From: an uncultured Campylobacterales bacterium | GTDB taxonomy: Bacteria > Campylobacterota > Campylobacteria > Campylobacterales > JAADDG01 | Direction of reading: 5' to 3' | Assembly: GCA_964450755.1 (NCBI GenBank) | Contig: CAYVDJ010000100.1 | Location: 1,665 to 65,664, forward strand | Length of the DNA: 64,000 bases | Shown here: piece by piece, positions 53,603-56,985 of the stretch | Numbering within the stretch: the stretch's first letter is position 1 | Layout of the letters: each line of letters begins with the position of its first letter | Notes under the pieces: model-generated | Told to the model about the DNA's origin: nothing | The model's input: only the letters and a program-made list of their open reading frames with translations | Databases searched by the model: none | Position numbers and translations under genes: made by a program

Positions 53603-54967
53603 TTAGGATTCTTGGAGTTGTTCAACAACTCTTTGCCATTTTCTGTTTCCGTCTGTTTCTCTGTTATAGTTTTCATCTATTTTTGCCTCTTCAAAATTTT
53701 TCAACTCCCCTTTTTGAGAAAGTGTGGAGAGAGGAGTTCCGTCCATCTCCGCACAGCCTGATGTCTGATAGCTGTCAAACTCCGCCTCTTCTATAAATCT
53801 CATAGTCATTCTCATCTGTTCGTAACTCTCTCCGGGCAGTCCGAAAGTAAAAGAGCCGTGAATACTCATACCGAGATTTTTGATATGTTTTATTACTTTT
53901 TTGGCATATTTTAGATCAAGATGTTTGTTTACAATTTTATCCACAACAAACTGGCTTCCGCTCTCAAATCCCAGACTTACACCAAAACATCCCGATTTTT
54001 TCATGATATCCCAAGTTTCCATCTTGATGGTATCTGCTCTGCACATGGCAGACCATGCAATATCATATTTTGCCAAAACCTCACACATCTCTTTTGTGTG
54101 CCTGTCTCCGAGGTTGAAAGTATCATCATCAAACCACAGTGATTTGAATTTCAGATCATTTACCAGATAATCCACATACTTTTCCATATACTCTTTGTTG
54201 TAGTATCTTACTTTTCTTATCTTTGTGCCGTCTGGATCATCTCCGCTCATCGTCGCAGGCCAGACGCAGAAGATACATTTAAAAGGACATCCTCTACTCG
54301 CCCAGACATGGGCATGGGGGAAGATCTGCCCAAGCGGTCTGTTGTTGTAGTAGTTATACAAGACATCTTTTTCAAAAAGCGGAAAAGGGGCATTGTTCAT
54401 CTCCTCTTCACTCAAAAGGTCATACTCTATAACTCCGCTCTCTCCTTTTAGAACTTTTACGCTTCCTTTCTCATATTCCCCTTTGATAACGGCATAGATA
54501 TCAAGCTCTTTTATGATCTCTTCTCCCCTTACACTGACGGGTCCTGTTATGATTATCTTGCTTTTTGGAGATATTTTTCGTATCTTTTTTATAAGAGTTT
54601 TGTCATGCTCAAAACTTGGGGTGGAGGACTCGAAAAATATATAATCAAAAAGCTCCTTTTTCAGATAGGAAAGATAACTCTCATAGGACTCTTTTCTTGC
54701 GATACTGTCTCTTAAGATGATCTTACAAGAGGTGTGTCTCTTTGCATAAGAGGCGGCATAAGCCATAAAATAGGGAAAAGGTATATAATCTTTATAGACA
54801 AAATTGTCAGGGCTTGACTGACCGAGATAGAGATACGGCCATCTGCTTCCGGCTCTTACTCCCTGATAGTATCTGTATTCTCTTTTTAACTCTCCCGTAT
54901 TCCAGTCTTTAAACTCCTGCCAGTTTTGTTCTCCCCACCATGGGGCGTTACAAAAGAGCGCTTTCAT
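53603..54967 (-). CDS. B12-binding-domain radical SAM enzyme (class B type)
   Basis: 454 aa. CxxxCxxC cluster motif RGCPFKCIFC is encoded at 54266-54289. The N-terminal 200 aa or so have a Rossmann-like cobalamin-domain pattern (KIIITGP...). Confidence 0.8.
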   Translation of the reverse strand: MKALFCNAPWWGEQNWQEFKDWNTGELKREYRYYQGVRAGSRWPYLYLGQSSPDNFVYKDYIPFPYFMAYAASYAKRHTSCKIILRDSIARKESYESYLSYLKKELFDYIFFESSTPSFEHDKTLIKKIRKISPKSKIIITGPVSVRGEEIIKELDIYAVIKGEYEKGSVKVLKGESGVIEYDLLSEEEMNNAPFPLFEKDVLYNYYNNRPLGQIFPHAHVWASRGCPFKCIFCVWPATMSGDDPDGTKIRKVRYYNKEYMEKYVDYLVNDLKFKSLWFDDDTFNLGDRHTKEMCEVLAKYDIAWSAMCRADTIKMETWDIMKKSGCFGVSLGFESGSQFVVDKIVNKHLDLKYAKKVIKHIKNLGMSIHGSFTFGLPGESYEQMRMTMRFIEEAEFDSYQTSGCAEMDGTPLSTLSQKGELKNFEEAKIDENYNRETDGNRKWQRVVEQLQES

Positions 54968-56985
54968 CTTTGCCCCGTGATGAGCTTTTGAAACTCTTTT
55001 GTATTTACATTGTTTAAAAACAGTTCCATATCTTTTTGGTTCGCTTTTGCAAGTTTTTTTCTCATATCTTTGTCTTTTATAAGAAGATTGCAGTTTTTTA
55101 TATAATCCTCTTTTGATTTTGAATAAGTTGTATGAAAAAGATCCAAATCGCCATAACAGCTCTCTATCGCTTTTTCATCTCTGTCCAAAGAGTATTTAAA
55201 ATACCAGTCGGCTGTCAAAGTGGCGCCAAAACCTTTGCTCATATATTCGTCTCTTGATGTGCCTTGGGGCATGGGGAAGGTATCCAAAAAGATATCGATA
55301 ACATATCCGTAGATGTTTGCATTTACCATCCACTCAAAGACAAATCTCTCTTTATCGATTTTCAGATCGCTCAATTTTGCCTCTATCGAATCGATATTGC
55401 CTACTCCACACGCCAAAAAGATGGCATCTTTGTTTTTATCAAGTATCTCTTTTACTGTTTTTAGATATTCGATACTGTCTAATTTTACATATCTGGTTAT
55501 AACGCCAAGAACCGTTTTGTTTTTAAAACGGTTCTCTTTTATCCTTTTTGCTTCCTGCTGTTCTTTGTTTGAACCCATCATGAATGAGGTATCTATCGAT
55601 ATATTAAATCTTTTGTATTCAAAAGTGGGAGAGTTTGGCATAAAATGGGAAATTCTCTCATCAATGCCTTCAACATCATATTCAAAATTTCCATGACACC
55701 AAAATATCTGTTTTGGTGCGGTTCGTGTGGCAAAGAGAAAATCCATGATGTCATAATTGTTCAAAGAACCTATCATGATATCTGTCTCTTTGTCTATCAA
55801 TATCTCTCTTATCTTTAAAGCTTTGCTTAAGTGATCATAAAAGAGTCCCTGCTCCTGGTTGATATCAAGTCCGGCTCTTATCACTTCGATACCGAGATCA
55901 TAAAGCTTTTCAAGTTCGTTTTGCTGATCTTCTGCTTTGTCTATATAGGTCAAAGAGACAAAAGAGATCTCATAATGTTTTTTGAACTCTTCATCTTTTA
56001 AGAGAGATTTTATCAGTGAATACTCTATCTTAAAAGGAGAGTTTTCCACTATTCTGTCTTTTATAAAAGCTATTTTTATTTTGCTGTTTGGATTTATCTT
56101 TTTGCATGGTTTGAGATTGTGTTTTTTTGCAAACTCTTTGTATGCCAAAGAGGCGGGTTTGTCAATCTTGCTGTTAAAAAGCCTCCACTCTTTTGGGCTT
56201 TGGTAGTTGTTACCGCATACACTGTATATAAAAAAATGAAGATACATCTGTGTTTGGATATCATCTCTTTTTATGGCTTCGTTGCAAAGGTCTGCAAAAG
56301 GATCAAAGAGTTTCAACCAGCTTTTATGATTGTGATAGGCGGGAATATTCCATGTAATGTGCAAAAGCCAGATAACAAGAGACCTTTGAGCTGCTCTTGA
56401 GGAGTTGAAAAAATTTTTTGCTTTGGCAAGTTGTAAAACGATATCGATAATCATCTCAAAATCCGGTTCATTATCATTTAAAAAACCTCTGAATGTCTCC
56501 ACCCCCAAAACAGCTCCGCTGCTGATAGCGGCGTTTATCTCCAAAGAGAAATTTCTTTTTATATACTCCCTGACACCTTTTTCAAAATCACCGTTTAGAA
56601 AGTCGCAGACGGCTACAAGGTGGTTAAAGATATATTTTTCACTTTTGTTTGGATCTGTTTGCAGAAAATTTTGTAAAAGATACTCTCTTAGAGCTTTTAT
56701 CGTGGGATCGGGTTGAAAAGAGACGATATCATGAAATGTTTTGTAAAGATTCAGCAGTTTGACAGAGGGCATCTCACCTTTTAAAAGAACATCATCTCTT
56801 ATTCTCTTTCTGAGAATTTCAAAATATTTTAGATAATACTCTTTGTACTCCTCTTTTTCTCTTATATCATATCTGCAAAAAGCTGCTATGGAGTCTTGGA
56901 GCAGATTTATATCCTGAATAGTTTGTAGTTTTTCAATCTCTTTCCCAAAAAGAGTGTTTTTGCCATTTTGTAAAGTATCTAACAT
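54964..56985 (-). CDS. GT41 (SPINDLY/O-GlcNAc-transferase/HMW1C-like) glycosyltransferase with helical-repeat N-terminal domain
   Basis: 673 aa. The C-terminal half follows the GT41 pattern as I recall it: [16 protein letters not shown]..., [39 protein letters not shown]..., [23 protein letters not shown]. First gene of the operon. Confidence 0.6.
   Translation of the reverse strand: [673 protein letters not shown]

Follow-up and report, generated by a model that had tools for sequence, protein, structure and literature searches.

The gene analysed here lies at positions 54964..56985, on the minus strand, of a 64,000-nucleotide stretch of DNA from an uncultured Campylobacterales bacterium (assembly GCA_964450755.1, contig CAYVDJ010000100.1); this whole stretch is called the window below. 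The gene encodes a protein of 673 amino acids (aa), which a first-pass annotation, made from the sequence alone, had read as a helical-repeat domain followed by a catalytic half resembling glycosyltransferase (GT) family 41. The open reading frame (ORF) is real, and it is on the minus strand, which that annotation had left unstated. The window has a G+C content of 35.8% and also contains an HP0268-family gene, which fits an origin in Campylobacterota. The gene and its product are laid out as follows.

54964..56985, minus: divergent GT41-like glycosyltransferase ORF, 673 aa (ATG-to-stop ORF and its translation)
56101..56985, minus: family-specific all-alpha domain, residues 1-295 (two models)
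55576..56094, minus: catalytic N-lobe, residues ~298-470, which carries N315 (hhalign to the GT41 N-Cat lobe)
55006..55524, minus: catalytic C-lobe, residues ~488-660, a predicted nucleotide-sugar-binding Rossmann lobe with GVITRYVK(501)LDS and E580 (hhalign)
56041..56043, minus: N315 codon; the residue aligns with the conserved active-site His of GT41 (profile alignment)
55483..55485, minus: K501 codon; the residue corresponds to the phosphate-binding Lys of GT41 (profile alignment)

The protein belongs to a family without any Pfam or NCBIfam model. An exhaustive profile search retrieved 1,179 cluster representatives (50% identity) with a limit of E<=0.001 and 238 with the stricter limit of E<=1e-30. 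A word-indexed search returned 35 relatives that share 30-44% identity; they come from Helicobacter and other Campylobacterales and are mostly unnamed or 'hypothetical'. An identical protein in an identical gene order is found on a metagenome contig (ENA ERZ27262694), and a tblastn search of plasmids with the window protein gave zero matches. Searches of Pfam, NCBIfam and PDB sequences with the window protein alone yielded chance-level matches only. By HMMER-level criteria the family is unclassified, and our literature searches found no published description of it. Four members (P0038, 1442 aa; P0064, 1200 aa; P0065, 1208 aa; P0099, 1200 aa) are about twice the usual length and contain two profile-matching stretches; they may be tandem fusions or carriers of extra domains. 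Several Helicobacter members (776-796 aa) have a C-terminal extension of ~100 aa.

Fold, homology and active site of the protein

A full-length AlphaFold2 model with the family alignment as input (predicted local distance difference test, pLDDT, 83.7; predicted template modelling score, pTM, 0.84) places two alpha/beta Rossmann-like lobes at residues 303 to ~660, followed by C-terminal helices, with a single disordered loop at residues 591-620. In a Foldseek search of the PDB with this full-length model, to whose scores the helical N-terminal domain may contribute, ranks 1-43 were held exclusively by GT41 enzymes (E 2e-15 to 9e-11). These were Arabidopsis SPINDLY (SPY; E 2e-15) and the O-linked N-acetylglucosamine (O-GlcNAc) transferases (OGTs) of Xanthomonas (XcOGT; E 1e-13), human (hOGT; E ~1e-12 to 9e-11) and Thermobaculum (TtOGT). 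The earliest matches outside GT41 were GT4 enzymes (HepE, BshA) at E 6e-8 and worse, and no HMW1C structure was present within the top 50.

Matches to Pfam models were weak among 33 members of the family. PF13844 (Glyco_transf_41) was matched below threshold in nine of them (best E 0.0037, 16 bits vs a cut-off of 25), as were Glycos_transf_1 (best E 4.6e-6) and Glyco_trans_1_4 (best E 2.3e-4) in this set; the weak Glycos_transf_1 and PF13844 matches map to the catalytic C-lobe. As evidence at the HMMER level was insufficient, profile–profile comparison was required. DUF7339 (PF24028) was also matched below threshold in 10 of the 33 (best E 1.6e-4). Where located (P0021, P0022 and P0028, residues ~256-350; window protein ~240-330), these matches run from the last part of the helical domain into the first catalytic strand.

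A profile of 86 family sequences was compared by hhalign with nine bacterial GT41 genes from plasmids, verified as PF13844 proteins at E 1e-59 to 1e-92. Plasmid genes were used because a search for GT41 sequences with a Drosophila OGT fragment gave short eukaryotic exon fragments only. The two profiles aligned across both lobes (97.6%, E 3.2e-12, 302 columns, query 298-652), and the catalytic halves by themselves gave 97.8% and E 9.3e-13. Control comparisons of the family with clusters of GT4 (0.1%, E 0.52), DUF354 (2.9%, E 0.016) and Maf (0.1%, E 0.43) set the level of chance resemblance at E 0.016-0.52, far from the value obtained with GT41. The three segments in which the first-pass annotation had recognised a GT41/SPINDLY pattern are present at residues 302-324, 418-446 and 563-585, and hhalign puts each on the motif proposed for it, RIRIAYLSADFHEHA, FAYRPAPIQINYLGYPG...IDY and ADLFLDSLPYNAHTTTSDALWAG, respectively. 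Its proposal of a GT41-like catalytic region holds in both the structural and the profile comparison. The C-terminal ~370 aa are very likely a GT-B domain homologous to GT41, whose enzymes are its nearest structural and profile relatives.

For calibration, a profile of HMW1C/EtpC, whose starting gene matched PDB 3q3e at E 4e-136, was aligned with the OGT-type GT41 proteins (98.0%, E 1.8e-13). Aligned with the HMW1C/EtpC catalytic half, the family gave 90.0% and E 1.7e-6 over 321 columns. Judged by these profile comparisons, the family lies at about the same distance from OGT-type GT41 as HMW1C does, and HMW1C is more distant from it still. Within the GT41 (OGT/SPINDLY/HMW1C) lineage, it has the look of a deep branch of its own.

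In the C-lobe of GT41 enzymes, a His or aromatic position and a G-H-T-T phosphate loop serve the nucleotide, and an acidic residue serves the ribose. K501 is Lys in 86/86 family members and in 9/9 GT41 references and aligns with the invariant K454 of HMW1C; we take it to be the equivalent of hOGT K842 and XcOGT K388. Y559 (Tyr in 80 and Phe in 5 of 86) corresponds to a position with His in seven and Tyr in two of the nine references, presumably hOGT H901. G575 (86/86) corresponds to one with His in seven and Gly in two, presumably hOGT H920, and is followed by T576 and S577 in place of two Thr that we assume to be hOGT T921 and T922. E580 (84/86) aligns with an Asp present in 9/9 references, which we equate with hOGT D925. 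From the alignment, these nucleotide-binding elements appear chemically compatible with those of GT41, though non-identical. R421, A423, P424 and Q426 (R-x-A-P-x-Q) are conserved in both the family and GT41, and D402 aligns with a conserved GT41 Asp.

In the N-lobe, N315 occupies a position held by His in eight and Gln in one of the nine references and by the invariant His of the HMW1C 'QHS'; this is presumably hOGT H498 and XcOGT H218, the His of the SSDFxxH motif. R311 takes the place of the Asp of SSDF (9/9 references). H431, H447 and R498 (86/86 for R498) are invariant residues specific to the family, and H431, at the W-x-H-G / G-H-P position, aligns with the invariant His375 (GHP) of HMW1C. 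The active-site signature is unchanged across all genomic contexts in which the gene occurs, in copies linked to flagellin genes and in copies linked to mreC alike. Conservation of the UDP-binding Lys and His of GT41 had been put forward as a check on the first-pass annotation: the Lys is there, and the His is replaced by Asn. The conserved nucleotide-sugar site argues for an active enzyme, which we consider likely, and the change from His to Asn at 315 means that the chemistry on the acceptor side may differ from that of canonical GT41 enzymes.

The N-terminal domain is helical, as first described, with no sign of the tetratricopeptide repeat (TPR)-like architecture ascribed to it. Two independent models agree that residues 1-288 are wholly helical, with about 15-17 helices and zero strands, and the stand-alone model of residues 1-295 has a pLDDT of 87.2. 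In a Foldseek search of the PDB this model found no significant neighbour (best E 0.097), its weak top matches being HEAT/ARM solenoids, with no TPR proteins among them. Pfam TPR models did not match the window protein, and the domain aligned with neither the TPR region of real GT41s (hhalign, 0.1%) nor the HMW1C N-terminal domain (0.4%, unrelated). Its two halves aligned with each other at 0.4%, so that no internal repeat was found, whereas the GT41 TPR region, as a positive control, recovered its own repeats at 95.7%. TPR identity of the domain is ruled out by these Pfam, Foldseek, hhalign and repeat tests together. On three counts the window protein is not a canonical member of GT41: it does not reach the Pfam model, has no TPR array and carries Asn for the conserved His.

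Genomic context of the gene and its relatives

Nine co-directional genes lie downstream of the glycosyltransferase gene, with junctions of -25 to +9 nt; three further genes lie upstream.

53603..54967, minus: B12-binding radical S-adenosylmethionine (SAM) enzyme, 454 aa (Pfam Radical_SAM and B12-binding; HpnJ/PhpK-like below NCBIfam cut-offs)
45887..53593, minus: eight further packed genes, in the order short-chain dehydrogenase/reductase (SDR), SDR, 362-aa protein, SDR, DUF354, GFO/IDH/MocA, DegT, hexapeptide acetyltransferase
50432-51520, minus: the 362-aa mid-operon protein (only match a weak Glycos_transf_1, E 0.004)
57086-57844, minus: PPK2 polyphosphate kinase, 100 nt upstream of the glycosyltransferase gene and on the same strand
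57900-58826, plus: LOG/'lysine decarboxylase'-family protein, upstream neighbour
59302-59778, plus: RraA-like protein, upstream neighbour

The stop codon of the glycosyltransferase gene overlaps the start of the radical SAM gene by 4 nt (ATGA), and through this overlap the two are translationally coupled. An operon for sugar nucleotides is not where a class-B radical SAM enzyme would be expected; its task here may be the C-methylation or rearrangement of the donor sugar. Among the other operon genes, whose NCBIfam scores all lie below equivalog cut-offs, the GFO/IDH/MocA oxidoreductase resembles UDP-GlcNAc 3-dehydrogenase (UDP, uridine diphosphate; E 2e-43), the aminotransferase is of the DegT/PseC type and the acetyltransferase of the NeuD/PglB type. 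These three would make up the classic trio that oxidises, aminates and acetylates in the synthesis of 2,3-diacetamido sugars. The 362-aa protein has no Pfam or NCBIfam family and no homologue among the gene clusters of the 64 related loci introduced below.

The first-pass annotation had placed the glycosyltransferase gene first in its operon. Here this is uncertain: the PPK2 gene lies 100 nt upstream in the same direction, no terminator is predicted between the two, and the counts of promoter and terminator motifs are at the level of shuffled sequence (37 vs 35.6 and 7 vs 8.1, respectively), hence uninformative on co-transcription with PPK2. As a general rule a first position does not hold either. 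Of 55 loci, 36 have an upstream gene that runs in the same direction, often at close spacing, and a clear first position is limited to the 19 with a divergent neighbour. The PPK2, LOG-family and RraA-like genes are not conserved neighbours of the homologue in other genomes.

We collected 64 related loci from GTDB genomes and called and clustered their ORFs; the gene itself was called in 61. Flagellin was identified by Flagellin_N/C/IN and Maf, the flagellin glycosyltransferase, by MptE-like and Maf_flag10_N. Flagellin and/or Maf adjoin the homologue in 25 of the 61 loci, which span Helicobacter, Wolinella, Sulfuricurvum, Sulfurospirillum, Nautiliaceae and Desulfurellales and show two gene orientations. 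The order is 'Maf< flagellin< gene>' in Helicobacter and Wolinella and 'flagellin> Maf> gene>' in Sulfuricurvum, Sulfurospirillum and a Nautiliaceae metagenome-assembled genome (MAG); both genes also adjoin the homologue in a Desulfurellales MAG. Counted over all 64 loci, flagellin and Maf are both present in 24 and either in 27. NeuB and/or a CMP-sugar cytidylyltransferase (CMP, cytidine monophosphate) adjoin the homologue in seven more of the 61. Apart from the 16 loci with an mreBC setting treated below, the remainder comprises six without upstream data and seven of other kinds. The link to flagellin that had been proposed by comparison with FlmG is thus seen at the level of the family, not in the window, where there is no flagellin gene.

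Downstream, 52 of 58 loci have a next gene in the same direction, which in 48 of these 52 is no more than 20 nt away; the most frequent overlap is 4 nt. Radical-SAM/SPASM paralogues of ~355 aa directly follow the homologue, in 42 copies across 26 loci, and other recurrent downstream partners are AsnB-type amidotransferase, DegT, SDRs, GT4, SAM methyltransferases, formyltransferase, GNAT, DUF354 and GFO. NCBIfam gave no specific names for the radical-SAM partners or for the proteins encoded at position +1. This repertoire suggests elaborate and unusual sugar tailoring in the islands that carry the homologue. Two proteins without a family, of 446 aa ('u446') and 418 aa ('c33'), as well as the AsnB-type amidotransferase, also recur immediately downstream across loci L001-L064.

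The DUF354, acetyltransferase, GFO and DegT proteins of the window are 40-67% identical to those encoded downstream of the homologue in L001 (Nautiliaceae) and L009 (Helicobacter), in both of which the homologue adjoins flagellin and Maf. By these sequence relationships, the window operon looks like a module of a flagellin-glycosylation island sited away from flagellin genes.

Proposed role and alternatives

Taken together, we lean towards an active, divergent GT41-like enzyme of protein glycosylation that belongs to the flagellin pathway and uses a sugar made by its own operon. Taken by itself, the role in the flagellin pathway has an even chance or somewhat better. The protein would be a soluble cytoplasmic GT-B glycosyltransferase whose two Rossmann-like lobes bind the nucleotide-sugar through Lys501, Tyr559, the G575-T-S loop and Glu580. 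Its N-terminal ~295 residues would choose the protein acceptor, by analogy with OGT, FlmG and HMW1C. This acceptor would most likely be flagellin, or flagellin already bearing a nonulosonic acid added by Maf. The donor would most likely be an unusual UDP-linked hexose of the 2,3-diacetamido type, made by the nine genes predicted to be co-transcribed downstream, and the adjacent B12-radical-SAM enzyme might modify it further.

A number of observations weigh against this proposal. In HMMER searches the window protein has no match to PF13844 even at E<=10, an HMM (hidden Markov model) of 33 family sequences retrieved a single PDB sequence (Drosophila OGT, E 0.053, on the motifs of the first-pass annotation), and an HMM of 86 sequences retrieved nothing. 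The position of the GT41 active-site His is Asn in 63 of 86 members (73%), with His in 11, Thr in four and Trp in three. Protein acceptor selection by the N-terminal domain, which we regard as probable, is argued from the TPR that OGT and FlmG have in its place and from the all-alpha domain found there in HMW1C, and the identity of the donor is suggested by family matches that lie below cut-offs. In the 64-kb window, tblastn searches whose positive controls worked found no flagellin, Maf, NeuB or cytidylyltransferase, so that the flagellar link of this copy goes through the orthology of its neighbours. Maf, an established flagellin glycosyltransferase (bioRxiv 10.1101/2022.03.25.485807), is already encoded in the same islands, and a second flagellin transferase is therefore not required. 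Finally, in 16 of the 61 loci, all from Helicobacter, lpxA...mreB-mreC precede the gene, GT4 often follows it, and there is no flagellin in reach; this mreBC placement is an envelope context.

Loci with the order lpxA...mreB-mreC-gene, Helicobacter: L010, L017, L024, L025, L029, L032, L034, L036, L037, L043, L045, L048, L050-L053

The best-placed alternative, which we still consider unlikely, is an active GT41-like transferase with an acceptor other than the flagellin protein. It could extend a glycan, adding sugar onto flagellin-linked pseudaminic or legionaminic acid, or act on another protein or on an envelope component. The 16 lpxA/mreB/mreC loci with their frequent GT4 neighbour would fit such a role, as would the lack of a nearby flagellar gene in the window, the presence of Maf in the flagellin-linked islands, and an N-terminal domain unlike the TPR domains known to bind flagellin. 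However, all characterised branches of GT41 (OGT, SPY and HMW1C/NGT; NGT, N-glycosyltransferase) act, to our knowledge, directly on protein side chains, and a dedicated helical domain of ~295 residues is more typical of the recognition of a macromolecular acceptor. The flagellin-linked and mreC-linked copies moreover carry an identical active-site signature, which suggests one function, and the adjacency to flagellin in two orientations and in distant genera suggests a selected linkage.

It is far less probable that the protein is a cytoplasmic N-glycosyltransferase of the HMW1C/NGT type, placing hexoses onto Asn of a secreted adhesin. Such an enzyme would share the overall plan, the hhalign match (90.0%, E 1.7e-6) and the correspondence of H431 to His375. 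However, OGT-type GT41 (E 3e-12) matches the family better than HMW1C does (E 1.7e-6), PF18071 and PF18254 are missing, the N-terminal domains are unrelated (0.4%) and HMW1C lies outside the top 50 Foldseek matches. Two-partner-secretion adhesins or transporters were also absent from those recurrent neighbour clusters that were annotated.

Equally improbable is an inactive GT41-like scaffold or specificity factor, for instance a GlfM-like adaptor that presents flagellin to Maf. This would accommodate Asn in place of the GT41 His and the co-occurrence with Maf, and GlfM provides a precedent (bioRxiv 10.1101/2023.12.03.569772). Yet the residues of the nucleotide site are near-invariant (K501, R498 and G575 in 86/86, E580 in 84/86, Y559 in 80/86), which would be unexpected for a pseudoenzyme, His is kept at position 315 in 11/86 members, and many loci hold the gene without Maf. 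A canonical bacterial OGT (TPR plus PF13844) using UDP-GlcNAc is the least credible candidate: OGTs and SPY are the closest solved structures, but PF13844, TPR and the active-site His are all absent and the gene is coupled to a modified-sugar operon, not to housekeeping UDP-GlcNAc.

Under the flagellin-pathway reading, the 673-aa protein probably represents a second kind of enzyme for the glycosylation of flagellin, as yet uncharacterised. The published picture in Helicobacter and Campylobacter is one of Maf with pseudaminic or legionaminic acid. If flagellin is indeed the target, filaments would carry a second glycan added by a second transferase, which would be relevant to motility, phage and immune recognition; the GT41 lineage would gain a branch without a TPR array and without the conserved His, and glyco-engineering a new module for acceptor recognition. 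The family is large and mostly 'hypothetical', and its genes form part of the islands for flagellin glycosylation in enterohepatic Helicobacter, Wolinella, Sulfuricurvum, Sulfurospirillum and their relatives. Several carriers of a homologue are culturable type strains; H. rodentium ATCC 700285, H. ganmani CIP106846 and H. pullorum NCTC 12824 are culturable and have the Maf-flagellin-gene order.

Comparison with known systems

Among known systems, the best structural match is to the OGT/SPINDLY enzymes (PF13844; XcOGT 2xgo, Thermobaculum OGT 5djs, Arabidopsis SPY 8dtg, human OGT), with which the protein shares a two-lobe GT-B. Also common to both are R-x-A-P-x-Q, the invariant Lys, an aromatic residue at the His/Tyr position, D-x-x-L-D-T-x-P, the terminal acidic residue and a helical N-terminal domain ahead of the catalytic domain. 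The family differs in lying below the Pfam model, in its non-TPR N-terminal domain, in Asn for His and Arg311 for the Asp of SSDF, and in its own invariant H431, H447 and R498, and its context is the flagellin glycosylation islands of Campylobacterota. Bioinformatic cataloguing has placed transferases with a GT41/SPINDLY domain in the flagellin glycosylation islands of enterobacteria (PMC4875605).

HMW1C/NGT/EtpC enzymes (PDB 3q3e) have the same plan of a non-TPR all-alpha N-terminal domain and a GT41-like GT-B, and share the Lys and the His at the W-x-H-G / G-H-P position. In contrast, the N-terminal domains are unrelated, the 'QHS' His is Asn in the window protein and a two-partner-secretion adhesin context is missing among the annotated neighbour clusters. 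The HMW1C Pfam models PF18071 and PF18254 matched neither the window protein nor 33 relatives; together with the unrelated N-terminal domain, this rules out membership of HMW1C. As a separate observation, many enterobacterial homologues of HMW1C/EtpC (PF18071 and PF18254; found from EtpC, L074:10634-12547) bear the name 'cobalt ABC transporter permease' in their NCBI records, which looks like a propagated misannotation.

FlmG binds flagellin through a TPR domain at its N-terminus, and its specificity for pseudaminic (Pse) or legionaminic (Leg) acid donors is set by a GT-B domain at its C-terminus (PMC7591256; bioRxiv 10.1101/2022.03.25.485807). Compared by description, FlmG of Caulobacter and Brevundimonas resembles the 673-aa protein in being soluble, with a helical N-terminal domain of ~300 aa and a C-terminal GT-B. 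At the family level there is also a shared linkage to flagellin and nonulosonic-acid genes (PMC7591256), which the window copy lacks. The N-terminal domain of FlmG is a recognisable TPR, whereas that of the window protein is not. FlmG uses CMP-Pse or CMP-Leg as donor, whereas the window has no NeuB. FlmG is described as the alternative to Maf, whereas the 673-aa family co-occurs with it.

Maf is an established type of flagellin glycosyltransferase, for which a GT-A-type fold has been described (bioRxiv 10.1101/2022.03.25.485807), and some Mafs require a separate helical specificity factor, GlfM (bioRxiv 10.1101/2023.12.03.569772). The 673-aa family shares islands with Maf, next to flagellin, and differs from it in sequence: Maf has an MptE-like/MAF_flag10 domain, for which the window protein has no Pfam match, and the two align at 0.1% in hhalign. 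Maf and FlmG were, according to a 2022 preprint (bioRxiv 10.1101/2022.03.25.485807), the two types of flagellin glycosyltransferase described by then. We tentatively suggest, as a possibility short of an even chance, that the 673-aa family could form a third class of cytoplasmic flagellin glycosyltransferase beside these two, mainly in Campylobacterota. Such a class would combine a GT41-derived catalytic domain, with Asn for His, and a new non-repeat helical domain that binds the acceptor, and would join Maf in adding to the filament a second, chemically unusual sugar, of the diacetamido type and modified by radical-SAM, amidotransferase or methyltransferase enzymes.

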